Below the pieces are notes generated by a model. That model made no database searches. It saw only the letters and a list, made by a program, of their open reading frames with translations, and was not told the origin of the DNA. Shown here one piece after another: positions 8,108 to 35,318 of a stretch of 64,000 nucleotides of DNA. Each line of letters begins with the position of its first letter. The first letter of the stretch is position 1. The translations under genes and the position numbers were made by a program. This DNA is from Parcubacteria bacterium C7867-001 (GTDB taxonomy: Bacteria; Patescibacteriota; Minisyncoccia; Phycocordibacterales; Phycocordibacteraceae). The stretch spans positions 65,937-129,936 of the forward strand of contig LFCK01000002.1 in assembly GCA_001189095.1 (NCBI GenBank). Direction: 5' to 3'.

Positions 8108-8319
8108 ACAAGGATTATAAGGCGTGTGGATACGGGGATATCGTATTCGAGCTAGTAAATACAACGTTTTTTCGTGAAGGAGTAGCTAAGAAGCTGTGTA
8201 TATTCTTGGCACAGGAAGTGGGGATAACTACTGGAGTAGTGCATGACTGGGTATAACCGATCCTTTTCCCCAACTCCATCCCCATAGTTTTACGGAAGTT
8301 TTTCATATCTTTTCCACAG
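8108..8319. promoter_or_regulatory. Candidate oriC / DnaA-box cluster in the dnaA-dnaN intergenic region
   Basis: Two 9-mers match TTATCCACA/TGTGGATAA at 8/9: TGTGGATAC (8126-8134) and TTTTCCACA (8311-8319). TGGGGATAA (~8221-8229) is 7/9. TGTGTATAT is 6/9. A flanking AT-rich stretch is present. Confidence 0.45.
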
Positions 8320-9681
8320 CTATACCAACAGTCCGCGGATATCGGAGATCTCTTTCGCGAGCTCCGCATCTTCAATAACTTCACGCTTCACTTTCTCGCA
8401 GGAGTGAATAACGGTAGTGTGGTCGCGCCCACCAAGCTTGCTACCAATAGTTGGATACGAAACTGAAAAGTCCTCACGGAGAAGGTACATAATGACTTGG
8501 CGTGGGCGCACTACCTCCCTTCTACGAGTCTTCTCGTAGATACTTTCCTCATCGATACCGTAGAACTCAGCAACTTTAGAGACCACATGCTTAACCGATA
8601 CTGTTTTTGTTGGGCGTGAGAAGGTTCTGAGTGACTGACGTACCTCAGCAAGATCAGGAGGGATCCCCTTTACTTGCGTATGGCAGACAACGCTATTAAT
8701 CACACCCTCAAGCTCACGAATAGAGCCTGAAACTGAGGTCGCGATGTATTCAATAACCGAATCATCAAGGTGGATGCCATGATGAGCGGCCTTTTTACGG
8801 ACAATAGCGATACGTGATTCCGTGTCTGGCTCGCCGATATCGACGGTCATACCACTCGAGAAGCGGCCACGAAGGCGATCGGCGATATCAGGAATAGCCT
8901 GCGGAGGACGATCTGAGGAGAAAATAATCTGCTTATTGTTGTCGTGAAGCGAATTGAAAAGGTGGAAGAGTTCTTCCTGTGTTTTTTCGCGCTTAGTGAG
9001 GAATTGCACATCGTCCATGATCAAAAGATCGTACTGGCGGTATTTTTCCTTGAAACGATTTGCCGTACCGGCCTGAATCGAGTCGGTATAGTCGTTTCCA
9101 AAACGCTCCGAGGTGAGATAGAACACTTTTCGGTTCGGATACATTTTCTTGAAATGGTTTCCTATTGCCTGAATGAGGTGCGTCTTCCCTCTTCCCGTCT
9201 CTCCATAGATGAAAAGCGGGTTGTAGGTGATTCCGGGGCGCTTTATGGCCGCCTGAGCCGCAGTGTGCGCGAGCTCATTGAAAGCACCGATGACGAAGGT
9301 GTCGAAGGTGTAGCGAGGGTTAAGATTGTCACTTTTGTTTATGTAGAACTCATCGAGCGGAAGTTCAGTATTCGGCCTATCGCGGCGTACTTCCTTAGGT
9401 TTTCGGCGGTCGTCTTTAACGATGAGGTACTCAATATTTCGATACTCAAACGAAACTCCACGAATAATTTTGAGGAGGAGGGTGTGAAATTTCTTCTGGT
9501 ACCAGTCGCGGAAGAATTGGCTTGGTACGCCAACGTACACAATGCCGTCCTCTATCTTCACAATGGAGCTCTCTCTGAACCATGTGTTGAAATTTGCTGG
9601 AGAAATGGATAATTCGACCTGCGTCAGCACGTACTCCCACAACTCACGAGGATCGGATTTATTCATGACAGATTCGAGCAT
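8320..9681 (-). CDS. dnaA: Chromosomal replication initiator DnaA
   Basis: Walker [14 protein letters not shown]+ domain III and a C-terminal DNA-binding domain IV. The start is placed at [10 protein letters not shown]. Confidence 0.93.
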
Positions 9682-9761
9682 TATACGCTTCCCTTCTGAA
9701 GCGGGTAAGTGCCGCTTTTTCTTGCAGAACGGTGGAGAACCTGTTAGTATCCTGTGGATAT

Positions 9762-9899
9762 ATGCCAAAGCGAACCTACCAGCCAAAAAAGCGAAAACGA
9801 GCAAAGACTCACGGTTTCCGTACGCGCAGCAAGACGGCGAACGGTAAGAACGTGCTCCGCCGACGCCGCCGAAAAGGCCGCGCCAGCCTTACGGTCTAG
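9762..9899 (+). CDS. rpmH: 50S ribosomal protein L34
   Basis: Read by eye (45 aa): [45 protein letters not shown]. This is the canonical L34 sequence, positioned upstream of rnpA. Confidence 0.9.
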
Positions 9900-9901
9900 C
9901 C

Positions 9902-10234
9902 ATGCTTCCCCGCCGCCACCGTCTCCCGCGGCGCGCGTTTACCTCTCTCCGGCACGCAAAACGTGCTGAGACGGCCCATTTTTCCGTACTCCTCCTCCCT
10001 TCTGGGGCAGAGGGGGGCTGTGCGGCAATAGTTTCAAAAAAGGTCGCCCGACTTTCAGTAAAAAGGCACCTTCTCAAGCGCCGAATACTCTCGGTCATGC
10101 GCCCCTGGTGCCTTACCCATCTTGGTATCGTAGTCCACGCTCGTGCTGGCAGCGATAAGCTCGCCTTCTCGGAACTTAAAGAGGAATTAGGAGCCCTTCT
10201 TGGGCGACTTTTGCCACAAATTCGTGCATACTAG
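9902..10234 (+). CDS. rnpA: RNase P protein component
   Basis: 110 aa basic protein in the conserved rpmH-rnpA-yidC order, with an RnpA-like FSVLLLPS...VSKKV...KRHLLKRR core. Confidence 0.85.
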   Translation: MLPRRHRLPRRAFTSLRHAKRAETAHFSVLLLPSGAEGGCAAIVSKKVARLSVKRHLLKRRILSVMRPWCLTHLGIVVHARAGSDKLAFSELKEELGALLGRLLPQIRAY

Positions 10235-10240
10235 AAATTC

Positions 10241-10981
10241 ATGATTGAATTTTTCCATCAGTTTCTTTACGTTCCGATCTACAACCTCCTCGTGTTTCTC
10301 GTCGGGATCATGCCGGGAGGGGATATTGGCCTCTCGGTCATTGTGGCGACGCTTATCGTAAAAATAATCATCATGCCGCTCTCGCTTGCGGCTGTCCGTA
10401 CGCAGAAGATGATGAAAATCATCGAGCCGAAGGTTAAGAAAATCCAAGAAGAGCTTAAGGACGATAAGGAGAAACAGGCGCGTGAACTTTTTGCCGTCTA
10501 TAAAAAATACAAAATAAAGCCGCTCGCGAGCTTCCTTACGCTCCTCATCCAGATTCCAATACTTATTTCGCTTTATTGGGTGTTTAGCACCGAAATTCTT
10601 CCGCAGGCTGACCTTTCCCTCCTCTACTCCTTCGTGCATCTCCCTGCGTCCGCCTCCCCGCTCTTCCTCGGTCTTTTCCCTGTTGCCGCATCGAGCATCG
10701 CTCTCGCTCTTATCGCAGGTCTCTCGCAGCTTGTTCAGGCGTACGTCGCTATTCCGCTCCCCCCTGCCCCAAGCAAAGATGCAGCTGCCTCAATGCAGGC
10801 TGAATTTGGCCGCGCTCTCGCTCTTCAAGCTCGCTTCATCATCCCGATTCTTATCGGTGTTGTTGCCTATACCTCTGGCGCAATCGCACTTTATTTCATC
10901 ACCAGCAATATCGTGATGCTCTTACAGGAATTCATCGTTCGCCAAGGAAAACTTCCCGAGCTCGCTGAAGAGGATCGCTAA
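10241..10981 (+). CDS. yidC: Membrane protein insertase YidC/Oxa1 (short monoderm-type)
   Basis: 246 aa with 5 TM helices and no large periplasmic domain. Positioned after rnpA. Confidence 0.85.
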   Translation: MIEFFHQFLYVPIYNLLVFLVGIMPGGDIGLSVIVATLIVKIIIMPLSLAAVRTQKMMKIIEPKVKKIQEELKDDKEKQARELFAVYKKYKIKPLASFLTLLIQIPILISLYWVFSTEILPQADLSLLYSFVHLPASASPLFLGLFPVAASSIALALIAGLSQLVQAYVAIPLPPAPSKDAAASMQAEFGRALALQARFIIPILIGVVAYTSGAIALYFITSNIVMLLQEFIVRQGKLPELAEEDR

Positions 10982-12237
10982 AGGTCGAATGCGTAGAGCG
11001 AGCTGTCTCGCTTATTCATGAACACGAGAATGTCCGCTTTCGGATCTAAGGTAAGGTTTTGTACATCAATATCGGTTCCCGTGACATTCGATGGGTCGAT
11101 GGTAAGTACTGCAAGACGAGAAACAAGATCTATCTTCCAGATACGGTCTGCAAAGCGGACGGCACCCTGATACCAATCGTCAGGAAGCGTTCCGGAAATT
11201 TTCTTTGGAACGGCGCAAAAGACATTTGTTTCGTCAGGAGACCAAACGCACTTTTCCGCAAAGGTAGGGGTTGGAAGCGCGGTTATGGTGCGTGTTGCGA
11301 CCGAAAGAACTGCAAGGCGCGGAGTTCCTCCATCAGTGTAGGAAAATAGTACCGATTTGCCCGAAGGACTCGGAAGGGTTGCGAGGCCTGAGAGTGGACC
11401 GAGGAGACGTGAGAAGTTTCCCGAGGCATCAACGAGGAAGGAATAGCCCGGAACACCGGAAGAAGCTTTCGTTGTCGCAACAAAGGTCTTTCCTGCGAAT
11501 CGGACCGAAAGAGAGGAAAGGACGGAGGAGAAGGCTGTTTTAACATTCGAACCGTCTGAACGGGCAGTTGTTCCTATTGAGCCAGAAGAGTTTTTTACGA
11601 GTGAAAATACGGTACTCGACGCACTTGTGGTCACTTCATCGAGATCGCGCTCGAGGAAATACCCCCCTTCCCCGTTTGCCGGAAGCGCGTAAGTCTCAAT
11701 ATGTTCATCGCCCGCGTCGTCCTTCGAAAGGTACTGCGTAAATGCGAGTGAGCCATCAGCGACCCACGCAGCCGTTTGTATCCCCGGAACTGTTTTGTTT
11801 GAAAGGCGGGTCGAGGCGTCGGCATGGAATTTGTAGGAATACACGTTACCGCTCGCGCGGTCGATGTAGCGAATGTCAGTGTCGTCGGTCGGCGCGAGAG
11901 TTCCGGCTGGTGTTGAGGTTGAGGTGGTCGCTGTCTGCCCCGCCTTCGGCGCTGGAACGTATACTGCAGCGAAACCAGCAACGACCGGCGCAGCCGTTAC
12001 TTGTATAAAGCGAGCGGAGAGCTTCTTCCCTGCTCCCTGCGAAATAATGCCCGTGTCCGTATTCCCATTAGTGTTCCCTCCCGTAACATCGTTACTTCCC
12101 GTATTTCCGAACGGATTCTCTCCACCGGTTGTGAGAGTCGGCGAAGAAGGAGCGAAGAAGATGAAATACACCGCAGCAAGTACGCCGAGTCCGACGACAA
12201 TGCTTGCGACAATGATGAGGATACGACGTGTGTTCAT
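10978..12237 (-). CDS. Exported hypothetical protein, possibly beta-propeller-like; last gene of the type IV secretion-like operon
   Basis: N-terminal TM/signal anchor, a Gly/Thr-rich linker and a repetitive beta-rich C-terminus. 4-nt overlap with the upstream gene. Confidence 0.5.
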   Translation of the reverse strand: MNTRRILIIVASIVVGLGVLAAVYFIFFAPSSPTLTTGGENPFGNTGSNDVTGGNTNGNTDTGIISQGAGKKLSARFIQVTAAPVVAGFAAVYVPAPKAGQTATTSTSTPAGTLAPTDDTDIRYIDRASGNVYSYKFHADASTRLSNKTVPGIQTAAWVADGSLAFTQYLSKDDAGDEHIETYALPANGEGGYFLERDLDEVTTSASSTVFSLVKNSSGSIGTTARSDGSNVKTAFSSVLSSLSVRFAGKTFVATTKASSGVPGYSFLVDASGNFSRLLGPLSGLATLPSPSGKSVLFSYTDGGTPRLAVLSVATRTITALPTPTFAEKCVWSPDETNVFCAVPKKISGTLPDDWYQGAVRFADRIWKIDLVSRLAVLTIDPSNVTGTDIDVQNLTLDPKADILVFMNKRDSSLYAFDL

Positions 12238-12239
12238 AG

Positions 12240-13160
12240 TTACTTAACCATACCTGGTGTGACTGTCGTCTCGGAGAATCCGGTCGAGTAGTCACACGCT
12301 GGTGCTGGGAGCTCAACGGTATGAGCGCCTATGGCTTTTTCTCCGACCACAGCGCATCCCTGAAGGGTTTTTATAGGACTATCGGTGCTTGCGCCGTGTT
12401 TCGTATCTGCGTTGCAGTAAGCAGCTAGCTGCGCAGAGGTAACTCCGCCATTTTTCGGAGCAACATATACGTGCTGGAAGAATCCGGACGCACAACCACC
12501 GGTTTTTGATTTATCAAACTCTGCATAGCCGGCCCAAATAACACTTCCAAGTTGGGACGCAACCCACTTCTTAGTAGCCGGCGGTATTTTTTCGCAGTAC
12601 TCGCCAGTAGTACTAAAGACAAGCTCTTCGGTATCAGGATCGCAGACAGGAGTGTCGCCAGCAGGCTCACCACCCTCATCGGCCGGTGTTGTGTCCGTTG
12701 GTGTATCTCCACCACCTGTTCCCCCGTCTCCACCAGCCGGCTTACCGTCCCCTGTTTTCGGGCCTCCATCTCCTGTTCCCGAGACAATAGGCGCAAGGTC
12801 GAGTTTAAGATCGAGAATTCGGGGGTCTATGACACTAAATACAATGGTCGGTGCGAGCACGATAAGGAGACCGAAAATCGACCATCCAATGAGGCTGCGT
12901 GCCTCTTTCTTCTCGGTAATCGAGTCGGGACCGAGATACATGATGCCTGCGCGCATGATCTGGAGAACCGCGAGGGCGGCAGCGATACCGATGCAAATTT
13001 TGTAGAGCGAGTTGAAGAACGGCGCGAAACCTTGGCTGCCCGCATTCACGACTTCCTTGAACGCAGGAATCTGCGTGAGCGGGGTGAAGGTCGCCTCATT
13101 CGCAGCAAAGACGCCGAGCGGAAGAATGAGGAACGCGAGAATGAAAAGAAGAGTTCGCAT
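12240..13160 (-). CDS. VirB2/TrbC-like pilin fused to a Gly/Pro-rich linker and a Cys-rich C-terminal domain
   Basis: Signal peptide plus two hydrophobic helices (IGIAAALAVLQIMRAGIMYLG ... IGWSIFGLLIVLAPTIVF), typical of T4SS pilins. Then a GDGGPKTGDG linker and a ~150-aa domain with 8 Cys. Confidence 0.5.
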   Translation of the reverse strand: MRTLLFILAFLILPLGVFAANEATFTPLTQIPAFKEVVNAGSQGFAPFFNSLYKICIGIAAALAVLQIMRAGIMYLGPDSITEKKEARSLIGWSIFGLLIVLAPTIVFSVIDPRILDLKLDLAPIVSGTGDGGPKTGDGKPAGGDGGTGGGDTPTDTTPADEGGEPAGDTPVCDPDTEELVFSTTGEYCEKIPPATKKWVASQLGSVIWAGYAEFDKSKTGGCASGFFQHVYVAPKNGGVTSAQLAAYCNADTKHGASTDSPIKTLQGCAVVGEKAIGAHTVELPAPACDYSTGFSETTVTPGMVK

Positions 13161-13162
13161 GG

Positions 13163-14128
13163 TTATAGTCCAAATATACCAAGCGGTTTCGCTGCGCCGA
13201 AGGTCACCGGAAGGTTTTGTGAGGCGCTCTGGATGGTTGCTGAGTGAGTTGCCGTGACGCCGATGGTTGCTGAACCAGCGCCGTTTCCGGTCGGTCGCAC
13301 GGTGAGGTCCTTCTCTCCCCCGCTTGCAACGCTATTCACTACCCACGCGATGGTTGGGATGCTCGGGAAGAAGTACGGAACGACGCGAAACGTTTCTTCA
13401 GAGTCGGTCATCGCTACGGTTCCGAAAAGTGCAGTGTTGAAATCAGGACCAAGGAGCGGATCGTTCTTATAAATGCGCAGGAGCGGCACTGCGGGGGCGA
13501 TGGCGAGCTGTGCCCCTCCGACGAGCGACTGATCAGGTGTTACGATAGTGACCGAAACAATTGCATCTCGGTAGCGCACCGGCGCAGTCACCGAAAGAGC
13601 TGAGCGCCCAATGCCCGACTCGGCCATGAGATTTTGATCCCCCACCTTCCACTGATAGGAAAGCGTTGTTGGGTCGATTCGTTTCCCTCCTGTTGTACGG
13701 AAATCGGCCAGCGCTATGAGGCGGATGCGTGATTCGCTCGTAATCGAGCCCGTACCGAGGTAGAGAGGGTGGACGGTGGTTGAAGGTTCAACCACCAGAG
13801 AGACGTCTTGTGGGGTGAGAACGATCTTTTTCGTATAGGTAGCTCCATTTATGGTTGCAGCTACTGAAATGGGGGTGGCCTCGCCTACTCCGCCAAGGGT
13901 GACTGAAATCGGTTCGGTGCCAGTCGTGATGGCGACCTCCTTCCCTCCTACGGTTGTGGTGATGCGAGCGAGCTCAAGCGGGATCTGGGTACTTTCGGGG
14001 GTTAGAGAAATGGTCGAGTATGGCGCAAAGAACCGCGGACTTACAGAAAGGTCGAATTCATTCGCTGCATGAGCAGGAAAAGCCGTTACGAGGAGAGTAA
14101 GGGCGACAAGAAATAGCGGAACGCGCAT
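13163..14128 (-). CDS. Secreted hypothetical protein (T4SS-like operon)
   Basis: Clear signal peptide MRVPLFLVALTLLVTAFPAHA. Beta-rich mature part. Confidence 0.5.
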   Translation of the reverse strand: MRVPLFLVALTLLVTAFPAHAANEFDLSVSPRFFAPYSTISLTPESTQIPLELARITTTVGGKEVAITTGTEPISVTLGGVGEATPISVAATINGATYTKKIVLTPQDVSLVVEPSTTVHPLYLGTGSITSESRIRLIALADFRTTGGKRIDPTTLSYQWKVGDQNLMAESGIGRSALSVTAPVRYRDAIVSVTIVTPDQSLVGGAQLAIAPAVPLLRIYKNDPLLGPDFNTALFGTVAMTDSEETFRVVPYFFPSIPTIAWVVNSVASGGEKDLTVRPTGNGAGSATIGVTATHSATIQSASQNLPVTFGAAKPLGIFGL

Positions 14129-14166
14129 AAGAATAGTATACCGTGCAAAAAAGCGCGTACAGGAAA

Positions 14167-14715
14167 TTACGCAGCTGTTTTTTCGGGTTGGTTTCGGTCA
14201 GGAGTACTTGTTCGTGCGGTTCTTCGCTCTTGAGCTCGCTGGTAGGCGGGAGCGTCCGAAGGGCCTCCTGTTATGACCGCTCTAAGGGCCTCGCGGCGCC
14301 TCTTTGCCGAAGTTGCAAGTGAAATTGTGTCAGCAAAGCTTTTCGGCATTATTCCTGCGTCTTCGAGACGTACGAAGAAAATGGTCGAAGCGACACCGAA
14401 GGTAATCGCAGGAATCATATCAACAAACGGTATGAGTTCGAGAAGTGCGGTACCACCGATTACGGCCCACTTTACGAGCCCAACCTTGAATACTTCCTTA
14501 CTGGGCGCCTGTTTCTTTCCGAATATGATACTCGGATCGATGAGGGGAAACCAAAGGAGATAAAAGAGGAAATTAGCGATAGCGCCAATGAGGAAGCAGA
14601 CTACTACATCAACAAAGGGGATGAAGGTTGCGAGAAACTGTACTCCGTCGAGCGCTCCCGCAACAGTGAGAAGAAGGTTTCCGGTGAGATTCCCAATCCG
14701 TCTCCGAGTGCTCAT
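14167..14715 (-). CDS. Integral membrane protein, hypothetical (T4SS-like operon)
   Basis: 182 aa with 4 predicted TM helices. Overlaps the virB4 stop by 4 nt. Confidence 0.5.
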   Translation of the reverse strand: MSTRRRIGNLTGNLLLTVAGALDGVQFLATFIPFVDVVVCFLIGAIANFLFYLLWFPLIDPSIIFGKKQAPSKEVFKVGLVKWAVIGGTALLELIPFVDMIPAITFGVASTIFFVRLEDAGIMPKSFADTISLATSAKRRREALRAVITGGPSDAPAYQRAQERRTARTSTPDRNQPEKTAA

Positions 14716-16535
14716 ACCCGCTCAGTACTTTCTTGACGCTGCTTTTCCTTTCTAATAGCGAGGAGCTGAGACGGGTCTGAGGTGATGATCTGGTCTTCGG
14801 TGTAGGAAGCGACGATTTTAATAGCGACGTGCTTAAGGCCCGCGAAGAACAGGCCCTCCCCCACTCCAGACTCAAGGAGAAGGTATTTCTCTTCATCGGT
14901 GAGATTGAAAATATCTTTAAGCACCTCAATCGTGGTCGGCGACTGCTTCAGAAGGAGCTGGATGGAGGAGTTCGTAAGAATCGGCTTGCCGTAGGGAGAG
15001 CGAAGGAAGTCTTCCACGTCCTGCGTAATGGTGGCAACGCCGAGGTAGTACTTGCGGCCGCGTTTCGCGAGGCTGTAGAGGAAAGAGGCGGTGTCTTCTG
15101 ATTTCATCATCCACCACGCCTCATCGATGACGAGAAGGCGCTTCTTGAGCTCGCGGCGGACTGCGTTCCAGATGAAGTGCGTAACGATATACATCGCGAC
15201 AGGTTTCAATTCGTCTTCCATGTCGCGTACGGAGAACACGACGAATTGCTTGTTGATATCGACGTTGGTCGGCTGATTAATGAAGCCCGACCATGTGCCA
15301 TGTGTGTACTTACTGAGGCGTTGCACCAAGGACTGGGAGCCCTCCATGCCTGAAAGCACACTCTCGAAGTCTGAGAGGAGTGGCGGCTCGACGCCCGTAA
15401 AATCAGCATCCCCCGTTATGTCCTTAAGCGCGTATGTTTCTGTGACGGCACGGTCGATGATGGCGTCTTCCTCAGGGGAAAGGCCGCCGAGCATGATGCG
15501 GAAGAGGCCGACAAGAGTGATGATGTTCGAGCGCAGAATGTCTGAAGGATTCTCATCTTGGCGTACGACCGGAAGATCGAATGGGTTGATGTGGTGTTCA
15601 GAGGAAAGCGAGATATTGAAGAGGCGTCCACCAGTGGCTTCCGCAAGGTATTCGTATTCGCGCTCAGGGTCGATGACGATGACATCGGTATCAAACATGA
15701 GCGAACGTAGGATCTCGAGCTTCACCGCATAGGACTTACCAGAACCGGATTTTGCAAAGACGACCGAGTTGTAGTTTTCAAGCGAAAAACGGTCGAAGAG
15801 AATCAATGAAGCATTGTGGCGGTTAATGCCGTAGAGGATGCCGTGATCACTCGTGAGGTCAAAGGAGACGAATGGGAAAATGGAAGAAAGAGGCGAGGAA
15901 TTCATCTTTGAATTTACGGCGAGCTCGTCGTTCGCAAGTGGAAGCGTTGAGCGGAAGCCCTGCTCCTGCTGGAAGAGTGCAGGTTTGGTATAGACGAGCT
16001 TGGCGTCGAGGACGCCGCGGAGCTCCCCTTCTATCTTGTCGAGTTCCTCTTTCGATTCCCCGTAGATGGTTATGTAGAGACCGAGATCAAAAATTTTCTC
16101 CTGCGCCTGCTGGAGGTTGTCCCGCAGACCTTCGAGGTCTTGGTATGCCGTGTCGAGCATTGGGTCGCGCACAAACCCCTTCTCTTCCCGTTCAGATATC
16201 TGGCTCTGCACTTCAGCAGTTTTCTTCTGGAGATTCCTAAGAGCTTGCCCTGTTTCGATGGGATGAACGAAAATGCCGATGTCGAAAACACGCGCAAGGT
16301 TGATGATCGGTGTGAACCAGCTATCGGTGAGGAAGCGCGGGTAGGAAATGGTGTAGAACGTGCGGGACATCTTCTCGCCGAGCTGTAGTTCCTTGGCGCT
16401 GACCTTAAGAGCCGCTGGGGCGATGGTATCTGCAAGGTTAAGCTGCCCTTCTGCATAAATGTCCTTCGGCAAGACCGGCACCACCGTTGCGGTGTCGTCT
16501 TTTTTCTTTCGTGCGAGGAAGTCGAGAAGAGCCAT
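14712..16535 (-). CDS. virB4: VirB4/TrbE/TraC-family type IV secretion ATPase, C-terminal 607-aa part
   Basis: Walker A FAKSGSGKSYAV, Walker B LLVIDEAWWMM and a Gram-positive-type N-domain region YPRFLTDSWF. It is in-frame with the upstream 214-aa ORF, separated only by one TAA. Confidence 0.85.
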   Translation of the reverse strand: MALLDFLARKKKDDTATVVPVLPKDIYAEGQLNLADTIAPAALKVSAKELQLGEKMSRTFYTISYPRFLTDSWFTPIINLARVFDIGIFVHPIETGQALRNLQKKTAEVQSQISEREEKGFVRDPMLDTAYQDLEGLRDNLQQAQEKIFDLGLYITIYGESKEELDKIEGELRGVLDAKLVYTKPALFQQEQGFRSTLPLANDELAVNSKMNSSPLSSIFPFVSFDLTSDHGILYGINRHNASLILFDRFSLENYNSVVFAKSGSGKSYAVKLEILRSLMFDTDVIVIDPEREYEYLAEATGGRLFNISLSSEHHINPFDLPVVRQDENPSDILRSNIITLVGLFRIMLGGLSPEEDAIIDRAVTETYALKDITGDADFTGVEPPLLSDFESVLSGMEGSQSLVQRLSKYTHGTWSGFINQPTNVDINKQFVVFSVRDMEDELKPVAMYIVTHFIWNAVRRELKKRLLVIDEAWWMMKSEDTASFLYSLAKRGRKYYLGVATITQDVEDFLRSPYGKPILTNSSIQLLLKQSPTTIEVLKDIFNLTDEEKYLLLESGVGEGLFFAGLKHVAIKIVASYTEDQIITSDPSQLLAIRKEKQRQESTERV

Positions 16536-16547
16536 AGTTCTTGTATA

Positions 16548-17192
16548 TTACCGTCCTTGTGCGGCACCTGCGATTGGCGCGGACTCGTTTTCGCTCAAAT
16601 TGAACGAGCGATAGAGTAACTCAATGATTTCTTCGGTACCGAGCGGTACGGCGCGAAGACCGGTCGCTGAAATGCCGCCTGCAACGAGTGCCATGCGCTG
16701 CTCGAGCTGGACGCGGTATTCCTCGAAAGAGCCGCTCGTCTCACTTTCACCCGCGGTCTTTTTCTTTCCAAGCATGGGAAGCGAACTCACCATCTCCCCT
16801 GCTATTGCTGGTGAATACGGCACGACGAGATAGAAAACCTTCGTCATGATGTCGCTTCCCTCCATGAAGCTCTGAATGAATTGCACGTACTCACGCACCT
16901 GTATGCGCATAAGTTCCGATTGCTGCGCGTCGAGGCGCTCGTTAAGGAGTGCGAGATACGGTCGAATATCCATTTTGCGCGAGTGCACGACTATCTGTAC
17001 CGAGAAATCGAGCGTATTAAGGAAAGTTTGGAAGCCGCCGATGATGGCGCGCTGCTCGTCTTCTGATTTAAGCGCGAAGTTGAGCGAAGAGCACATGAGG
17101 ATGCCGCGATACCCGCCATCTTTCAAAATGACGACACCATTACGGATTTCCTTAACGGGCACGAACGCTTGTGTTGGTTTTGCGTCAGGCAT
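16548..17192 (-). CDS. VirB4 N-terminal segment-like protein (214 aa), separated from the ATPase ORF by a single in-frame stop
   Basis: Resembles the extreme N-terminus of monoderm VirB4 (PrgJ/TcpF type). Its stop TAA (16548-16550) is in the same frame as the ATG at 16535. Confidence 0.6.
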   Translation of the reverse strand: MPDAKPTQAFVPVKEIRNGVVILKDGGYRGILMCSSLNFALKSEDEQRAIIGGFQTFLNTLDFSVQIVVHSRKMDIRPYLALLNERLDAQQSELMRIQVREYVQFIQSFMEGSDIMTKVFYLVVPYSPAIAGEMVSSLPMLGKKKTAGESETSGSFEEYRVQLEQRMALVAGGISATGLRAVPLGTEEIIELLYRSFNLSENESAPIAGAAQGR

Positions 17193-17194
17193 GA

Positions 17195-17608
17195 TTAGTT
17201 CTGAGACTGCTCGCCCTGATCCTTAATATCGAGTTTCCACGCGAGTTCATGGAGTTTATTTTCGGATAGGTTGGCCCGTGGGCGTACTGGCGCGACAACC
17301 GGAGCTTCTACTTGCTGGGCCCCAGTATCTTTTTCCTTTTTCCAGAGATAGAGACGCTTTCCGACGTAGTAATTGAAGCCGGACTCGAGGATTTCGACGA
17401 AGGTTTTGCCATTCATCTTGAAAAACGCGAGCGCGCCGGCAAAGGCCGCTATCGGCGTTGCGAGGATTATAGCGATAACGAGTGGGAAATAGAGGAGAAT
17501 CGCAATGCAAATGCCTGCGCCACCGGCGAGATAGATGAACTGTTTGAGCGTGAAGGGACCGAAGATCTTGTCTTCGACTTCAATGAACTGCGGTACCTGA
17601 TAATCCAT
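17195..17608 (-). CDS. PrgI/VirB3-like small membrane protein
   Basis: N-terminus MDYQVPQFIEVEDKIFGPFTLKQFIYL followed by two TM helices, the hallmark of the PrgI family. Confidence 0.65.
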   Translation of the reverse strand: MDYQVPQFIEVEDKIFGPFTLKQFIYLAGGAGICIAILLYFPLVIAIILATPIAAFAGALAFFKMNGKTFVEILESGFNYYVGKRLYLWKKEKDTGAQQVEAPVVAPVRPRANLSENKLHELAWKLDIKDQGEQSQN

Positions 17609-17638
17609 CGGTACTAGTATAACCGATGCGTTGTGAAC

Positions 17639-18583
17639 CTACTCAACAGGTTCGCGGTAGGGATCGTTGTTACCAACTCGCGGTGGAGGTGAAGCTGCAG
17701 GACGGCGCGAGATTTCAGAAGGCATGTACGGGCGTGCAAATTGCTGCGGAGGAGCGACCGGTTTTGGAGGAGTTGGTGGTGTCCATGTCTGCTGCGGCTG
17801 GGGAGTTTGAACGGGCGTTGGCGCAACTGGTTGTGCGTGCGGAGCTCCGTGTGACTCTGGAAGCGTAATCATGTGCGGAGCTGGATGCTCCCCTGCCTTA
17901 ATGGCCTTCATATCTTCTGCCATGGTGCGCATGGTTCCGAAGGTTGCTGCAGGCTCATTTTGAGGTGCGGGCGCAGGCTGTTGTTGCATATATATATGTA
18001 CGCTCGGTGCCGGCTGCATCACCTGCGGAGCAGGGGCTGCCTGTTGAGGAGCTGGTTGCATAGGGGTTGATCCCGGCAGAACGATGTTGTTCGGGGCCTG
18101 CGCGACAAATGTCTGAGGTGTAGGCGCGGCTACAGGAACTGGTGTTGGAGTTGACGCGATAGGAGCAGGTGGGACCACAGGAACCCACTTTTGTCCCGCG
18201 GCTTTTTGGGCAGGTGCTGGACGTGCTGCGGGAAGAATTTCTTCTCGGCTCTTTTGTTCGGTTGCCTGTATCTTTTTGAACACCTGCTCGTTTATGTCGT
18301 TTATGACTCCTTGAGTCGTTTGCTCATCGAAACCCTCCTTTCGGAGTTCGTCCATGAACTCTTCAGGAGTCGTGATGCCGAGAAGCATGAAAAGGAAGGC
18401 GTGTTCAAACCCACCCGCTTGATCGGCGTGCATTTTATATTTGCGCATAAGAGCAAGAACAACCTCGTTTCGTCGTGGGCCAACGACGAAATCACGAACG
18501 GCTTTCGGAAGCCCTCCAACCAGCGTTGCGACAGCCTCGTCAATGCTTATTTCGGATTGTGTAGTTGAATTTGTCTGGTCCAT
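17639..18583 (-). CDS. Hypothetical protein with an N-terminal globular domain and a long Pro/Ala/Gln-rich low-complexity tail
   Basis: 314 aa inside the T4SS-like operon. PAPQ-rich repeats. Confidence 0.5.
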   Translation of the reverse strand: MDQTNSTTQSEISIDEAVATLVGGLPKAVRDFVVGPRRNEVVLALMRKYKMHADQAGGFEHAFLFMLLGITTPEEFMDELRKEGFDEQTTQGVINDINEQVFKKIQATEQKSREEILPAARPAPAQKAAGQKWVPVVPPAPIASTPTPVPVAAPTPQTFVAQAPNNIVLPGSTPMQPAPQQAAPAPQVMQPAPSVHIYMQQQPAPAPQNEPAATFGTMRTMAEDMKAIKAGEHPAPHMITLPESHGAPHAQPVAPTPVQTPQPQQTWTPPTPPKPVAPPQQFARPYMPSEISRRPAASPPPRVGNNDPYREPVE

Positions 18584-18586
18584 ACG

Positions 18587-20584
18587 TTAGTGACCTCCCG
18601 CGGGCTTTGCGCCACCTCCCCCACCAGATTTGCCTCCACCCCCACCCGAATTACCACCTCCGCCACCTCCCCCACCAGGGATTTTCCCAATAGCATCGAC
18701 AAGGCGATCGTTGTCAGTCTTACTTATGTCCTTAAGTATCTTTGCTGCAGCCTCATGGTTAGCGTGCTTATCAACCGAGGGCCAAGAAATTCCTTGAGTC
18801 TCAATTCTTTGTGCATAGGCACGCTTACCTGTGTTCTTGTCGACTGTCTTGAGTTCTTCGGTGAGGTTCTCAATAGCTTCTTTTGTATTGCGGAGGTCCA
18901 CATCCTTCTGAGCCTCTTTTGCAGCCATCTGCGTTTGGAGCTTCTGGACGTCTCCCGTCTTTCCAGCTGCTTGAGCTGTTTGGATGTCTTTTGCAAGCTG
19001 TACGCGCTCATTTTGCCACTTCTTATTTATCTCTTTTTCTTGAGCCTCTAGAACACTCTTCTGAGACTTGAGAGTTTTCTCCTGTGCTTTTTCTTCTTCA
19101 GTTTGCGTAAGTTTATTTGCATACTCAACTCGCGCCTTTACTGCGGCTTCCTCAACACCATGAATGCCATGCGATGCATCCTTTCCAGCTTTTCCTAAAT
19201 CAAGACCTGACTGCCCGGAAACGAATTTCCCAACACTTCCTGCACGTGCATCAAAACTCGAAGTCGCACCTTTATTGAGCACTCCATAGGTGAAACGTCC
19301 AAACCTCGAACGTCCGAAGCTAGACGAAGCGACTCGGTTAGCAAGCATTGAAGATCCAGCACCAATAGTGCGGCGACCAACAAAGCCCATGCCGCCAAGA
19401 GCAAATCCGCCACCAATCTTAGTCGCTGTTTCTGCGCCGTACGCGCCAATTTGCTTCGCCATTATCAAGGAACCGATCATGAAGCCAATCATCAGGAAGA
19501 AGATAACGAACACTCCCATGAAATTTGCCTGACCAGTTGTAATTGCGTCCAAAATGGTTCCGCTACCTCCGAGGACCGTTTGCAATGAATCGCTTATCTT
19601 CAGGCTCACGAAAATAAGTATGAGGAATACCGGCGCAAAGAATGACTGATTGATGAGTGCGTGCCACCAATCATTCGCCTGTTTATTCAGAAATGGAAGC
19701 GCCATGCCCGCGAAGCCTATCGGCGCGAGCACCATGAGAAGGACCAGCACGACGGCGCGGATGAGAAGCATAATCGTTCCTGCAAAGAGCACCATCGCGG
19801 TACAGAGCACGAATATAGAGAGGCCGATGTAGACAACTGCGACCTCAAAGAATCCACCAGCCGGAACGGCGTTTGGGGTAGCAAGGAATCCTGCGATACC
19901 CGTCGACTGGAGGATCCTGCCGCTGATGCCAGATTTTATGCACTCATCACTCACAACCTTCCCCGAGCATACGTCTCCCCCAGAGGCTTGCGTGTAGACA
20001 GCTGAGCTCAAGGCGTTTGACGTGTCTATTATGGCTTCGGCAACGAATAGGCTGAAGTTAAGAAGAAGCGCGAAGATGATAAGCATCGGAAGCGTCTTCT
20101 TCGCGTTGTAGTCGTGGAGATTGAGGATGATGCCAACGCCGGTGAAGATGAATCCAAAGAGAAGCAAGATGTTTCCAAGGTCGCGAAGTATCTGCCATGC
20201 AGCTATCACTCCCGGAGAGTTGCCAAAAAGGTTTGGGAAACCGAATACGAGGTACACCATCGCCAAGTTGAAAAAGTACCCTGCCATGGCGAGCAGCCAG
20301 TTCGCGAGCGTAAGCACAAGCATGCCGATACCGGTCGCAAAACATCCGCCGAAGTCAAAATGTCCACCAAGAAGATCGCAGGCGCCTCCAGATGTTTTCG
20401 GTTTGTCGGCAGCAGGACCAGCTACGTCGGGGACGTTTGTGGTTTCGGATACACCAACCCCCGGACCCGCTCCCGGCGCGGCAAAGGTTGTTGTTGGGAA
20501 AAAAGAAAGTGCGGCAAGGAGAAAGGTGCCGATTATGAGTGTGCGAAAGATGTATCCCGAACGGATCATGGCGCGCTCGCGCAA
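18587..20584 (-). CDS. VirB6/TrbL-like polytopic membrane protein with a C-terminal coiled coil and Gly-rich tail
   Basis: ~8 TM helices in the central region, a signal-like N-terminus, a charged coiled-coil C-domain and a terminal GGGGGGGNSGGGGGKSGGGGG tract. Confidence 0.65.
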   Translation of the reverse strand: MRERAMIRSGYIFRTLIIGTFLLAALSFFPTTTFAAPGAGPGVGVSETTNVPDVAGPAADKPKTSGGACDLLGGHFDFGGCFATGIGMLVLTLANWLLAMAGYFFNLAMVYLVFGFPNLFGNSPGVIAAWQILRDLGNILLLFGFIFTGVGIILNLHDYNAKKTLPMLIIFALLLNFSLFVAEAIIDTSNALSSAVYTQASGGDVCSGKVVSDECIKSGISGRILQSTGIAGFLATPNAVPAGGFFEVAVVYIGLSIFVLCTAMVLFAGTIMLLIRAVVLVLLMVLAPIGFAGMALPFLNKQANDWWHALINQSFFAPVFLILIFVSLKISDSLQTVLGGSGTILDAITTGQANFMGVFVIFFLMIGFMIGSLIMAKQIGAYGAETATKIGGGFALGGMGFVGRRTIGAGSSMLANRVASSSFGRSRFGRFTYGVLNKGATSSFDARAGSVGKFVSGQSGLDLGKAGKDASHGIHGVEEAAVKARVEYANKLTQTEEEKAQEKTLKSQKSVLEAQEKEINKKWQNERVQLAKDIQTAQAAGKTGDVQKLQTQMAAKEAQKDVDLRNTKEAIENLTEELKTVDKNTGKRAYAQRIETQGISWPSVDKHANHEAAAKILKDISKTDNDRLVDAIGKIPGGGGGGGGNSGGGGGKSGGGGGAKPAGGH

Positions 20585-22170
20585 GCCTGTTTATCGGCGC
20601 GCGCCTGTTTTCCGATGGCAAGCATGGTTGCTGATACCGATTGTATGGTTTCTTCCTCAAGATTTACTGATGAATTCAATTGGCCCGAGCCCGTACCGTC
20701 TTCCTGTATGTGATGCAGCTTCGCTCCGGTGGTGGTGAGCGAAACGACCGGCCCCGGCGTTGCGTCGTCCTCGGCTTCGGAAACTTGGGAGAGGGTTGGG
20801 AAACTGCTCTGCTTCAAAATCGTCTCATATTTCTTCTGAGCGGCCTCAAATCCTTCTGGATCGTTTTCCTGCGCGACCTTTTGGAGGGAGGAGATTATGT
20901 CATTGAGCGAAGTTACGGCTGTGTTTGCAGAAGAAATTCGTCCTGTCGAGTAGTCGGTAAGGACGATGGTGACATCAGGGGAGAAGTTTGCGTTTGTCGG
21001 GCATGAGCCAAGAGCCACAAGGGCTGACTGTGCGTCGGTGGCTGCATCGCGGATGGACTCTATATTGGTGGAGTATCCGCTCAACTGCGCTTGCTGCGCA
21101 GTGACTATTTTAAGGAAAGAGAGAGCGGCATTTGCGGCGGTTCCCTCGGTGTTTGCAGCCTCGGTTGCATCGGCCTGCTGCCCGAGCGCACTTCGTCCGC
21201 TGCCACCTGAGCCGCTTTCGCCGAGACCGAGAAGACCACCACTCCCGAAGAGTTGGCTGCTGATGAAGTTCGCGATGATTTCATTGAATTCATCCGCTTG
21301 CACAATGCGATCCTGCGAGGAACCAAGCGCTTTGTTTACCGTTTCAGCGAGGATGTGGCCCGGCGTCGTGATGTTTCCAAGACACACACCAGCAACCGAA
21401 AGTGATACGGCACCATTCGGGTCCTTCTTATCCTTGCAGCCTGTGCGAATCGGAAGGAAACCATTTCCCTGCTGGAGAAGGTCCCCCTCTTCTTTTTGAG
21501 CGTCGGCAACTTTGCGTCCGAGTTCTTGTTTTGCTATGTAGTCTGCTCCCAGAGGGTTGTTTGCTTGCTTCTGTGTTGCGGAGAAAAAACAATCAAGACT
21601 GACAGGTCCCTTTCCTCCTATTTTACTTTCGCATTCTTTCGAAAGGGTGTACGGGTTACTTGCGAAGAAGGCCCCCTTTCCTGTCGACTTGAAGTAGTCT
21701 TCACGCACCGACTGCGCGATAAGCGACTGGAAGGGCGATTTCACAGCACCATTCGTTGAAAGCTGCTTGAGGAAGTCGTCAGCGACGCTGTCACCGACAT
21801 CGAGCATGTGCTTGCTGATGTTCGTCACTGGCGAAGGAGCGCCGTTATTTCCCGTAAGCGCCTTCTGAAGCGACTGGTTCACCATTTTCTGAATGAGCGT
21901 ATTGCCGATTCCCCACGCTGCGGGGTCAAGTCCAAACTCCTTCATCATGTCCTTGATTGAGTTTGCTGCGGTTATGCCGGACTTAACGGCAATAAAGGCA
22001 GTTTTAATAGACGTTATCGCATTCTTAATGAGGTTCGTTCCGTCGATGACGGGAAGGCCTCCTGCGTACGCAGGTTGAGGGACGAGGGCGATAGATGCTG
22101 AGGCGAGAAGTGTGCAGCCGAGAAGGAGGGCGCCTACTTTTCGTCGAAGAGATGGGTGTGCGTGCTTCAT
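20566..22170 (-). CDS. Large secreted hypothetical protein (T4SS-like operon)
   Basis: Signal peptide ending AYA. 534 aa, Ala/Ser/Gln-rich. Confidence 0.5.
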   Translation of the reverse strand: MKHAHPSLRRKVGALLLGCTLLASASIALVPQPAYAGGLPVIDGTNLIKNAITSIKTAFIAVKSGITAANSIKDMMKEFGLDPAAWGIGNTLIQKMVNQSLQKALTGNNGAPSPVTNISKHMLDVGDSVADDFLKQLSTNGAVKSPFQSLIAQSVREDYFKSTGKGAFFASNPYTLSKECESKIGGKGPVSLDCFFSATQKQANNPLGADYIAKQELGRKVADAQKEEGDLLQQGNGFLPIRTGCKDKKDPNGAVSLSVAGVCLGNITTPGHILAETVNKALGSSQDRIVQADEFNEIIANFISSQLFGSGGLLGLGESGSGGSGRSALGQQADATEAANTEGTAANAALSFLKIVTAQQAQLSGYSTNIESIRDAATDAQSALVALGSCPTNANFSPDVTIVLTDYSTGRISSANTAVTSLNDIISSLQKVAQENDPEGFEAAQKKYETILKQSSFPTLSQVSEAEDDATPGPVVSLTTTGAKLHHIQEDGTGSGQLNSSVNLEEETIQSVSATMLAIGKQARADKQACASAP

Positions 22171-22172
22171 GG

Positions 22173-23249
22173 TTATTTTTTAGTTGCGTCAGCAGCTTCC
22201 TGTTCAACGCGCGCGGCGAGAGAGGCGGCGGTTAGGAATTCATAACCAGACTCGTTCTTCAATAGGGTGATTTGGTTATTTGAGAAAACAGCGCTGAGCT
22301 CTGAAAGTGCTTCCACAAAGGAAAAGGCGGAGCCCTGATAACGGCCCAAGCCAAGGAGGCTGCGCATCGGATCGCTCTCGGTGTAAGTCATATCGGTCGT
22401 GACGGTGCCCATGCGTATGTACGCGTTCGCCAATTTAAGGTGTGCTGCAGCTGCTTCCTGCGGAACGGTGACTCGCATAAGCGCCTTCCCTGTTGCCGTA
22501 TAGGCTGCGCCGATCTCCTTTACCTTCTTAAGTGCAGCTGCATCTCCCTTGGTGGTTGCTTCGTTGTAATACTCAAGCTCGCTCTTGGTGGTTGCGACTG
22601 AGTTCGCCCCCACTGTCTCTTCGACGTGTCCGATGTAGCTGCGAAGCGCCGCTACCCCGCTACCACCCGAGACTATTTTCGAGGCAGTGTAGGTGTCGGT
22701 GAGCGGGTGCGCAGCCACGAACTGTTCGACCGTCGCGTCCACAAAGGCAGCAATTTCTGCTTTGGTAGGCTGATTTGCTCCGCGGCGCTCAAGATAGGTG
22801 ATGAAGAGCATTCGGGTGAACTCATCCGTAAGGGTGTCAGGGCCGGTGGAGACGGTCGAGCTCGGGAGGACGGCGCTCGCCGCCACGGCTGCAGAAGAGA
22901 ATTTCGGCTTTACGACGCCTTTATCTACTGCCTCGCTGTCGGTGAGGGTCTTATCTAGGGAGTGGGCGTCGGTCGGGCTTGCACCGTAGAGGAGCTCTTC
23001 CCAGTCGGGAAGACCGTCGGAGTCGGTATCCTTTGCGGCGAAGGACTTAAGGAGCTCTTCGGTCGAGGCTGCATTAACGCCGCTTGCGCCAAACGGGTTA
23101 TTTGAGCTCGAAAGAAGGAAGGCACTCACAATGAATAGCGCTGAAACAAGGAGCGCACCGACAATGCTTACTGTTTTAAAAGTAAAAGCCACGGTAAAGG
23201 TATAAAAATAGTAGCACGCTTCGTCTGCGTGGACGCGAAGATGAAGCAC
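22173..23249 (-). CDS. Membrane-anchored protein with a thrombospondin type 3 / dockerin-like Ca-binding motif; first gene of the operon
   Basis: N-terminal TM helix. DTDSDGLPDWEE motif (DxDxDGxxDxxE). Confidence 0.5.
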   Translation of the reverse strand: MLHLRVHADEACYYFYTFTVAFTFKTVSIVGALLVSALFIVSAFLLSSSNNPFGASGVNAASTEELLKSFAAKDTDSDGLPDWEELLYGASPTDAHSLDKTLTDSEAVDKGVVKPKFSSAAVAASAVLPSSTVSTGPDTLTDEFTRMLFITYLERRGANQPTKAEIAAFVDATVEQFVAAHPLTDTYTASKIVSGGSGVAALRSYIGHVEETVGANSVATTKSELEYYNEATTKGDAAALKKVKEIGAAYTATGKALMRVTVPQEAAAAHLKLANAYIRMGTVTTDMTYTESDPMRSLLGLGRYQGSAFSFVEALSELSAVFSNNQITLLKNESGYEFLTAASLAARVEQEAADATKK

Positions 23250-23267: not shown

Positions 23268-24050
23268 TTAATTAGGAAAAAGTGCGAGGGTGAGTGCTCG
23301 CCACTTCGAAAGCGGAACATCTTCTGAACGAACGGAATCCGAGAGTTCGACGGTACCAAACGCATTCATAATCGCTTCTTTTGAACTAAGCACCTCAAGG
23401 TTTTTCGCGAGCCGCTTTCGTTTATGTGCAAAGCTCGCATGAAGCACCTCCCAGAACTTGTTCTCGTGTTCTTTTGTGTCGAATGCAGAGTGAATGTCGA
23501 CGATCGAAAGCACGGCAGAGTCGACCGAGGGCGCGGGCACAAATGCGCCGCGCGGAACTTTGAACTCTATGCGCGGAGTTCCGTAGGCTTTCACCGAAAG
23601 CGAGAGCAGCGATTCTTTTTTGCTGCGCGCGATGCGTTCAGCAACTTCCTTTTGCACCAGAAGCGTCATCGAGCTCGGTTTATGTTCGGCGGTAAGAAAA
23701 GCGCGAATGATTTCTCCCGTGATGTAGTACGGAATGTTCGCTACAAGTTTGTAGGACTCTTCGAGAGTTACTGCGTCAAAAGTTCGAACATCTCCTTCGA
23801 TAAGTTCCAAACTTCCCTTCTCAATTTCGGAAGCAAATGTTTCGCGTAGTACCGGAACGAGTTCGCGGTCTGCTTCGATAGCGATAACTTTTTTCGCGCG
23901 TGCAAGAAGTTCGCGCGTGAGCATTCCAGTGCCTGCTCCTATTTCAAGAACGAGATCATCTTTCGTTATGCCAGCGGCGTCCGCGATGCGTGCTGCTGTT
24001 TGTTGGTGCATCAGAAAGTTCTGACCGAGTGATTTTTTTGCGCGCATCAT
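23268..24050 (-). CDS. rsmA: 16S rRNA (adenine1518/1519-N6)-dimethyltransferase
   Basis: LGQNFLMHQQTAARIADAA...LEIGAGTGMLT SAM-binding motif. 260 aa. Confidence 0.9.
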   Translation of the reverse strand: MMRAKKSLGQNFLMHQQTAARIADAAGITKDDLVLEIGAGTGMLTRELLARAKKVIAIEADRELVPVLRETFASEIEKGSLELIEGDVRTFDAVTLEESYKLVANIPYYITGEIIRAFLTAEHKPSSMTLLVQKEVAERIARSKKESLLSLSVKAYGTPRIEFKVPRGAFVPAPSVDSAVLSIVDIHSAFDTKEHENKFWEVLHASFAHKRKRLAKNLEVLSSKEAIMNAFGTVELSDSVRSEDVPLSKWRALTLALFPN

Positions 24051-26050: not shown

Positions 26051-26141
26051 GATGGCCTCATTGACCCCCTGTCTGGGGCAGCTATAATCCCTTGGTTGGC
26101 AGTCACGGAGGCACTCAAGAAATGGCGTATGTAAGCCATTT

Positions 26142-29023: not shown

Positions 29024-29626
29024 CTATTCAAAACCGAAAAGGCCGCGAGGTCGGTATTGTAGCGCTTCCATCACATGAACCGCGAGCACTTCATCAGAGC
29101 CGGAAAGATCAGCGATGGTGCGCGCGACGCGCATGGTGCGATGGAAGGAACGCGGCGAGAGGTCGAGTTTATTTGCGGCCGTGAGGAGTGTTTGCTTCGC
29201 ATCGTTGGTAAAACCGGATGATTCATCCAGCTCGCGCGGCGAGAGACGCGCATTCGCAGAGTCATTTTTACTGCGCGAACGGGCGCGAGAGCGTGCTTTC
29301 TCAACACGTTCGCGAACAGTATCTGATGCTTCGCCATCAGCGAGCGAGGAGAGCTGGTCGTGCGGAATGTGCGGAACCTCAACCCAGAGATCAAGACGAT
29401 CAGCTATGGGGCGAGAAATTTTGCGCGCCTGCTTCAGTGCTGCCCGCACTGCAACTTCCGAATCCGCGGTAAGCGTGTCAGCTGGATTCATCGCCGCAAC
29501 GATCATGCAGTCTGCGGGAAAGGTGATGCTCGCTTTCGCTCGCGAGACGGTGACCACGCGGTCCTCGAGCGGTTGGCGGAGCGCTTCAAGAGCGCGAATT
29601 TCAAACTCCGGAAATTCGTCGAGGAA
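29024..29626 (-). pseudogene. comM: comM/yifB (Mg-chelatase-like AAA+ competence ATPase) 3' fragment, beginning at the Walker B box
   Basis: Similarity to ComM begins abruptly at FLDEFPEF...[14 protein letters not shown] and continues to the C-terminus. The N-terminal 16 residues of the ORF (TTG start) are element-derived. Confidence 0.8.
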
Positions 29627-35315: not shown

Positions 35316-35318
35316 ACT

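Follow-up and report, generated by a model that had tools for sequence, protein, structure and literature searches.

The metagenome-assembled genome of Parcubacteria bacterium C7867-001 includes, within the 64,000-nucleotide (nt) stretch of contig LFCK01000002.1 analysed here (positions 65,937 to 129,936, hereafter the window), eleven consecutive minus-strand open reading frames (ORFs; 10978-23249, all intact, named g01 to g11 from low to high coordinate) that almost certainly encode a type IV secretion system (T4SS) of the Patescibacteria type. An original prediction had read these genes as a non-conjugative, T4SS-like surface machine of the kind reported in the Candidate Phyla Radiation. Their content, position and lineage match the Patescibacteria T4SS already published (Wang 2023 Cell, PMC10633639; Quinonero-Coronel 2025 Microb Genom, PMC12102498; FEMS review 2025), which supports that interpretation and makes the finding one of a known kind. 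Nearly all ultrasmall CPR/Patescibacteria bear such an origin-proximal cluster, which entered the literature in 2020-2025. The best explanation as a whole, a Patescibacteria-type T4SS serving epibiotic exchange, is probable; its functional component, contact-dependent exchange with a host cell in the service of an epibiotic lifestyle, is drawn by analogy and may be slightly favoured. To this known kind of system the locus adds three details: a candidate VirB5-like subunit (g10), a contrast in conservation between VirB4 and the other parts, and an invariant C-terminal peptide of g08.

Motor, channel and pilin genes

A genome scan for VirB4 yielded 561 confirmed relatives, and the best 80 of these (75-87% identity) supplied the comparison loci. 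The VirB4 ATPase of the window (g05, 14712-16535, 607 amino acids, aa) is of the monoderm MPF_FATA/CD1110-like type, scoring 379 bits against the NCBIfam model conju_CD1110 (cutoff 325; profile positions 183-733), matching Pfam P-loop_TraG at 1e-24, and possessing intact Walker A (KSGSGKS) and Walker B (LLVIDEAW) motifs. Its clade membership is based on CD1110, of the MPF_FATA prototype CTn2, being the best NCBIfam model and on the titles of the best 80 of the 561 relatives, which are mostly records titled Paceibacteria, Parcubacteria, Kaiserbacteria or Patescibacteria, the others carrying uninformative titles. The gene directly upstream (g06, 16548-17192, 214 aa) matches positions 2-119 of the NCBIfam CD1110-VirB4 model, positions 103-233 of VirB4_plasma, and TrsD at 2.9e-4. 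Because g06 covers the N-terminal part of the same CD1110 model as g05, VirB4 is effectively split, with g06 as its detached TrsD-like N-terminal domain. This gene lies directly upstream of VirB4 in 78 of the 80 loci, and TrsD-like and PrgI genes are both found there in 75-78 of the 80.

The PrgI family protein, equivalent to VirB3 (g07, 17195-17608, 137 aa), is a small membrane protein that matches PF12666 at 3e-10, above the gathering score, and has two adjacent transmembrane (TM)-like segments by hydropathy. The VirB2/T4SS-pilin-like protein (g02, 12240-13160, 306 aa) consists of a signal peptide, two hydrophobic helices and a variable Gly/Cys-rich C-terminal extension of ~190 aa; its own Pfam scores are below cutoff (PF04956, TrbC, 5.5e-4; PF18895, T4SS_pilin, 1.9e-3), and its syntenic orthologues match PF18895 in 35 of 40 cases (best 3e-11) and TrbC/VirB2 in 19 of 40. 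No second pilin copy, pilin array or paralogue of any operon family was found elsewhere in the window. The extended VirB6/TrbL-like polytopic membrane protein (g09, 18587-20584, 665 aa, probable start ATG at 20569) has, by hydropathy and sequence, a signal peptide, ~7 TM segments, a K/E/Q-rich charged coiled C-terminal region and a poly-Gly tail. There is no Pfam match to g09 itself, and its sequence-profile search of the PDB returned only coiled-coil or Ca-motif noise; PF04610 (TrbL/VirB6) is matched by 9 of its 40 syntenic orthologues (best 1.9e-7). The identities first proposed for VirB4, the PrgI/VirB3-like protein, the VirB6/TrbL-like protein with its Gly-rich tail and the VirB2-like pilin were thus all borne out.

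The genes are as tightly packed as had been described, with spacers of 2-38 nt. Two of the 4-nt overlaps that had been noted are inside the operon, one between g05 and g04 (14712-14715) and the other (ATGA) between g10 and g09 if g09 starts at ATG 20569; outside it, uvrD and ksgA overlap by 4 nt, as do g01 and the convergent yidC. A minus-strand promoter and terminator scan gave no sigma-70-like promoter or strong terminator interrupting the series from g11 to g01, and no convincing sigma-70-like promoter upstream of g11.

Conservation and chromosomal setting

The operon is situated between uvrD-ksgA (upstream and co-directional) and yidC-dnaA-dnaN (downstream), in the recurring order uvrD-ksgA-g11-g10-g09-g08-PrgI-TrsD-VirB4-(g04)-g03-g02-g01-yidC-dnaA-dnaN. 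The same order is found in dozens of Paceibacteria genomes, the uvrD-ksgA side being kept in loci with enough flanking sequence. By family hidden Markov models (HMMs), the canonical series g11-g10-g09-g08 is complete in 42 of the 56 loci with enough upstream sequence; of 62 loci, 59-62 have g03, g02 and g01 (g03 in 59, g01 in all 62). The flanking genes are housekeeping context and not part of the T4SS: ksgA (23268-24050, minus strand, Pfam RrnaAD 3.6e-49), the uvrD/pcrA-type helicase gene (24047-26149, minus strand, Pfam UvrD-helicase 1e-80), and the replication-origin neighbourhood genes dnaN and dnaA (minus strand) and yidC (plus strand), identified at 7007-10981 by Pfam and conserved synteny, with dnaA at 8320-9804.

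In 13 loci of one sister subclade (L015, L016, L019-L023, L025, L028, L031-L033 and L035), with VirB4 ~81% identical, the g08-g11 module was not found upstream of PrgI, where ORFs of 500-650 aa occur instead. These ORFs could be analogues that have diverged greatly; alternatively, the module could lie at another site.

The conservation of VirB4 equals or exceeds that of DnaA (median identity 77% versus 56% in the same genomes over all loci; 86% and 85% in the 13 closest loci), a comparison possibly biased by the choice of loci according to VirB4 similarity. The other medians in the 13 closest loci are 68% for TrsD, 60% for PrgI, 47.5% for the pilin, 47% for g01, 43.5% for g03, 38% for VirB6 (g09), 35% for g11, 30% for g08 and 29% for g10; across loci, the median identity of PrgI is 49-60% and that of the exported T4SS proteins about 27-47%. 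Thus, the motor is constrained like a core housekeeping gene, whereas the membrane-distal and exported parts diverge fast.

The fixed order across dozens of genomes, the uvrD-ksgA and yidC-dnaA-dnaN flanks, and a guanine-plus-cytosine (GC) content equal to that of the flanks together indicate a chromosomal locus that is passed on vertically and does not belong to a mobile element. A mobile-element origin of the operon was considered and rejected on synteny and composition. No recombinase or tRNA gene is adjacent to the operon, the nearest being at 30.8 kb or beyond and at 45.8 kb or beyond in the window, respectively.

The absence of conjugation genes had been noted in the original prediction, and no type IV coupling protein (T4CP) of the VirD4/TraG/TcpA type, relaxase or VirB11 was detected by Pfam and NCBIfam among the ORFs of at least 250 aa and several smaller ones in the window. 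An ordinary conjugative T4SS with its relaxase and T4CP genes at other sites of the genome, in the manner of a dispersed integrative and conjugative element or a chromosomal transfer system, would accommodate this result, since the inspection covered 64 kb only; virB4 and T4CP genes often lie far apart (2,918 Patescibacteria genomes carry VirD4-like genes, most of them remote from virB4; PMC12102498), and the VirB4 of C7867-001 belongs to the family of the Firmicutes conjugative elements (CD1110/CTn2). Such a dispersed system is nevertheless highly improbable. The locus is fixed beside dnaA in dozens of species with native GC content and without integrase, tRNA or repeat boundaries, its VirB4 shows the conservation of a housekeeping protein, only 103 of 3,035 Patescibacteria genomes have a relaxase (PMC12102498), and in Southlakia epibionticum the distal T4CP is non-essential, whereas the T4SS is essential (PMC12102498).

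Since uvrD and ksgA point the same way as the T4SS genes and adjoin them closely, in an arrangement kept in related loci, uvrD, ksgA and the operon may form a single transcription unit of 13 genes. The distance from ksgA to g11 is 18 nt from the listed ORF, or ~75 nt from the likely GTG start of g11. Cumulative GC skew is lowest at ~4-10 kb of the window and rises through the operon, and the T4SS block is transcribed towards dnaA/yidC; if oriC is located at ~4-10 kb, the operon is oriented head-on to replication.

Exported and accessory proteins

Of the six proteins originally described as secreted or membrane proteins with no recognisable domains, two do not fit that description: g06, the TrsD-like N-terminal domain of VirB4, and g08 (17639-18583, 314 aa), which has neither a signal peptide nor a TM segment and is cytoplasmic. 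There is no Pfam or NCBIfam family match to g08. An alignment of its 27 syntenic orthologues reveals a helical N-terminal domain of ~110 aa, a hypervariable Pro/Gln-rich linker, and at the extreme C-terminus a sequence D-P-Y-R/H-E-P that is invariant in all 27. The C-terminal DPYREP has the look of a docking motif at the end of a disordered tether.

The remaining accessory proteins are predicted to be exported or membrane-bound. The product of g01 (10978-12237, 419 aa) has an N-terminal membrane anchor (TM segment at residues 6-24 by hydropathy) and an ectodomain that is probably a TolB/PD40-like beta-propeller: 12 of the 13 PDB matches to its profile are TolB (E 0.004-0.03), and its orthologues have weak PD40 and DPPIV_N matches. 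The beta-rich product of g03 (13163-14128, 321 aa) possesses a signal peptide for Sec-dependent export and is probably built of tandem immunoglobulin (Ig)-like domains, its profile giving weak Ig-like matches in the PDB (Hoc at 0.006). The small polytopic membrane protein g04 (14167-14715, 182 aa, ~4 TM segments) is an accessory kept by position, not by sequence: an ORF with 2-5 TM segments follows VirB4 in most close loci and is missing from many distant ones.

The exported or membrane-anchored product of g11 (22173-23249, 358 aa; likely true start GTG at 23192, where its orthologues begin) carries the thrombospondin-type Ca-binding motif that had been predicted (DTDSDGLPDWEE), with an all-helical domain after it. 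Its orthologues carry PF18884 and the NCBI name "thrombospondin type 3 repeat-containing protein". The helical domain was modelled confidently by AlphaFold2 (pLDDT 82), and a VirB8- or VirB5-like identity for g11 was rejected because the model resembles generic four-helix bundles only. Its sequence-profile search of the PDB likewise gave nothing except coiled-coil or Ca-motif noise.

A pilus or adhesion organelle, in which a VirB2-type fibre with adhesive accessories attaches the cell to its host and nothing is translocated, would account for a pilin gene accompanied by exported adhesin-type folds (Ig-like, beta-propeller and thrombospondin type 3 Ca-binding), for the discoidin and Ig-like domains of some g10 orthologues, and for the rapid divergence of the exported parts, which fits host-specific binding. 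This is very unlikely to be the whole function, as Patescibacteria already attach and move by type IV pili, and the extended VirB6 with the strongly conserved VirB4/TrsD/PrgI core suggests a translocon.

The Sec-exported helical protein g10 (20566-22170, 534 aa; g10 and g11 are ABA06_02845 and ABA06_02850, 100% identity) belongs to a large family without annotation. Word-indexed searches with the single sequence and with a 24-sequence alignment found only 4-5 homologous proteins; exhaustive HMMER searching revealed the family, with 5,606 clusters at 50% identity at E <=1e-3, of which 2,420 are at <=1e-30. There is no Pfam, above-cutoff NCBIfam or PDB sequence match to g10, its PDB profile results being coiled-coil and Ca-motif noise.

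The mature N-terminus of g10 (GLPVIDGTNLIKNAITSIKTA) is near-identical to that of the P-type TrbJ of the VirB5 family (GIPVIDGTNLSQNIMTAIESVA): GLPVIDGTNL in g10 aligns with GIPVIDGTNL in TrbJ, both immediately after the signal peptide. A tblastn search with residues 37-104 against 72,556 plasmids matched 122 records, each at an E value of only 0.1-9, and 12 of the 15 matches listed lie inside trbJ, starting just past its signal peptide. Comparison of g10 with TrbJ by hhalign aligned 29 N-terminal columns (probability 57%), and the NCBIfam TrbJ model scores 17.9 bits on g10 (cutoff 286; E 0.0014). Gene order agrees: the gap between g10 and g09 has a median of 2 nt across 42 loci, and IncP-type plasmids have trbJ, then (trbK and) trbL, as g10 is followed by g09. 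Two results weigh against the resemblance. Foldseek matched g10 to nothing in the PDB below E 0.38, and when the full-length TrbJ HMM was run against 8,165 ORFs of 80 loci its top match was a g10 orthologue with a non-significant E value of 0.81. On the strength of the mature N-terminus and the position directly upstream of VirB6, g10 may be proposed as a candidate VirB5-like subunit, with the balance tilted somewhat against it. In some of its orthologues the C-terminal part bears discoidin and Ig-like domains, as would fit a protein that is exposed at the cell surface and binds a ligand. The survey of the Patescibacteria clade reports no VirB5 (PMC12102498), and none of the papers searched ties VirB5 to the T4SS of this clade.

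Comparison with known systems and possible function

VirB4 is encoded by 2,417 of 3,035 Patescibacteria genomes, almost always as a member of one monophyletic clade nested in MPF_FATA, at loci with TrsD, PrgI/VirB3, VirB6 and VirB2-like pilins, with relaxases nearly absent (PMC12102498). The T4SS is found near dnaA, dnaN and ksgA in Paceibacteria and Microgenomatia, and in the class ABY1 it co-localises with comF, recG and radA (PMC12102498). The operon of C7867-001 resembles this clade in its MPF_FATA-type VirB4, adjacent TrsD, PrgI/VirB3, VirB6 and VirB2-like pilin, in the lack of a relaxase and of a nearby T4CP, and in its chromosomal position adjoining dnaA, dnaN and ksgA (PMC12102498). 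It does not differ from the surveyed loci in kind; the survey's "grey" neighbours are here resolved as seven families at recurring positions.

The Saccharibacterium Southlakia epibionticum requires its cluster SEML1_0006-0019 for growth on its host, as determined by transposon sequencing, and the cluster was reported to have unusual pilins and no coupling protein or relaxase (PMC10633639). The comparison with Saccharibacteria and Parcubacteria proposed earlier shows that the gene order is kept in Paceibacteria loci and that the core order VirB6-x-(x)-PrgI-TrsD-like-VirB4, with an exported Ig-like protein downstream, is shared with Southlakia ML1. The Southlakia cluster is likewise near dnaA/dnaN (locus tags 0001-0019), with no relaxase or coupling protein recognised. 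Southlakia has six tandem, divergently transcribed pilins, whereas C7867-001 has one pilin with a long Cys-rich extension; its VirB6 (1,088 aa) and PrgI (300 aa) are larger, and g10, g11 and the beta-propeller protein g01 were not matched to Southlakia genes. Essentiality has been shown for the Southlakia cluster only. VirB4 is followed in Southlakia by lysozyme/CHAP and peptidase genes, but in C7867-001 by the gene of a small membrane protein, an M23-LysM protein being encoded only outside the operon. The latter, a LysM and M23 peptidase (26142-27314, plus strand), is divergent from uvrD and syntenic in only four loci; it could be a T4SS wall hydrolase or, equally, an ordinary division hydrolase. 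M23/LysM-containing VirB1-like proteins near virB4 in Paceibacteria have been noted in the literature.

With the conjugative MPF_FATA systems of Firmicutes (CTn2 CD1110, pCF10 Prg/Pcf and pGO1 Trs) the operon shares the VirB4 family, PrgI, TrsD and a monoderm architecture without VirB7/9/10. It differs in having no relaxase, T4CP or VirB1-like hydrolase in the operon and no recognised VirB8-like protein (PrgL/TraM), in its location off mobile elements, and in its VirB2-type pilin, which Gram-positive systems lack. The TrbC-TrbJ-TrbL set of the IncP P-type (MPF_T) system is similar in its TrbC/VirB2-type pilin, in the TrbL matches of g09 orthologues and in the g10-g09 order, which mirrors trbJ-(trbK)-trbL. 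However, g10 is twice as long as TrbJ and has no detectable sequence similarity to it past the first ~30 residues, and there is no outer-membrane core (TrbF/G/I) in C7867-001.

Bordetella Ptl, Brucella VirB and Helicobacter pylori ComB also function without a VirD4 coupling protein or relaxase and show that a T4CP-less system may serve protein export (Ptl, Brucella) or DNA import (ComB). All are of the diderm MPF_T type and have a VirB7/9/10 core and VirB11. The homology of the C7867-001 operon to them is limited to the VirB2/3/4/6 families, and no VirB7/9/10-like proteins of a ComB-type core are present. A machine for uptake of DNA or other nucleic acid, like ComB or the archaeal Ced system, might run inwards and import host DNA to supply nucleotides that the organism itself cannot make; the T4SS has been put forward in reviews as one possible route by which nucleotides are acquired (PMC11665869). 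The window, with neither relaxase nor T4CP detected, presents the ComB situation, ABY1 T4SS loci co-localise with the comF, recG and radA genes, and a UvrD/PcrA helicase gene is conserved immediately upstream of the operon. This function is unlikely. The uvrD-ksgA pair is ordinary origin-region housekeeping, the operon shows no component that would bind DNA or act as a nuclease, and the NCBIfam matches to CedB (37.6 bits, cutoff 700) and CedD (16 bits, cutoff 600) are far under their cutoffs. Deletion of comEC in S. epibionticum abolishes transformation without loss of viability (PMC12857230); as comEC is dispensable and the T4SS essential, the essential role of the T4SS is not ComEC-dependent DNA uptake.

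Several points weigh against a Patescibacteria-type T4SS that serves epibiotic exchange. The pilin (g02) and VirB6 (g09) assignments in the window are putative and draw on orthologues, their own Pfam scores being sub-threshold; nothing resembling VirB8 or VirB1 was recognised among the operon's products; the C7867-001 genome, of which 64 kb was searched, may encode a VirD4-like T4CP at a distance, as most Patescibacteria genomes do (PMC12102498); and the functional reading is an extrapolation from one Saccharibacterium. Reviews describe the function of these systems as "completely unknown", the ideas put forward being effector delivery, nutrient or DNA uptake, and pilus formation (PMC11665869, PMC12857230).

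If the operon does encode such an exchange system, PrgI would anchor VirB4 and its detached TrsD-like N-terminal domain at the membrane, and VirB4 would power the extraction or dislocation of pilin and its polymerisation on a VirB6 platform. An oligomer of g10 may cap or nucleate the pilus or stalk, as VirB5 does in diderm systems (model in PMC12857230), and the fast-evolving g03 (Ig-like), g01 (beta-propeller) and g11 (Ca-binding, helical) proteins would form the wall-spanning or host-contacting part. Possibly, g08 tethers a partner to the motor via its C-terminal peptide. Export of protein or import of host macromolecules would be likelier than conjugative DNA transfer. A more specific and tentative proposal, which is rather more doubtful than probable, is that the system is a chimera of a Gram-positive-type motor (VirB4/TrsD/PrgI) and a diderm P-type-like VirB2-VirB5-VirB6 pilus or stalk, in which g10 would be the VirB5/TrbJ-like tip or nucleator and g08 a tethered motor adaptor.

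Elsewhere in the window, recombinase genes are limited to those of a large serine recombinase (30812-32566) and a XerC/D-like integrase (40756-41703), neither of which adjoins the operon. The comM/yifB gene (Mg-chelatase-like AAA) is split into an N-terminal part (35651-36715, minus strand) and a C-terminal part (29024-29674, minus strand) by an island of ~6 kb (~29675-35650) with a GC content of 0.46-0.49, versus 0.52-0.55 elsewhere. The island encodes the large serine recombinase, a DUF5343 protein (29776-30573) and small ORFs, and resembles a mobile element that has integrated or the remains of a prophage; att-like repeats flanking it were sought, and none was convincing. A 421-aa ORF (55064-56329, minus strand) is DGQHR/DndB-like at sub-cutoff scores (NCBIfam 1.1e-5, Pfam DndB 6e-4) and may be related to DNA modification or defence.

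Few machines are conserved throughout the Candidate Phyla Radiation; the T4SS is one of them, and the single species tested cannot grow epibiotically without it. Which cargo it moves, and in which direction, is a question that bears on the biology of ultrasmall symbiotic bacteria. The locus of C7867-001 gives a clean and complete picture of the system in Paceibacteria, with boundaries assigned to all eleven conserved parts, and it offers three handles for experiment or complex modelling: g10, the DPYREP peptide of g08, and the contrast between the conserved motor and the fast-evolving exposed parts. If the chimera proposal were true, g08 with its DPYREP peptide would act as a tethered motor adaptor not recognised before, g10 would give the monoderm T4SSs their first VirB5-like subunit, and the discoidin and Ig-like adhesin domains fused to g10 in some lineages could set host recognition.

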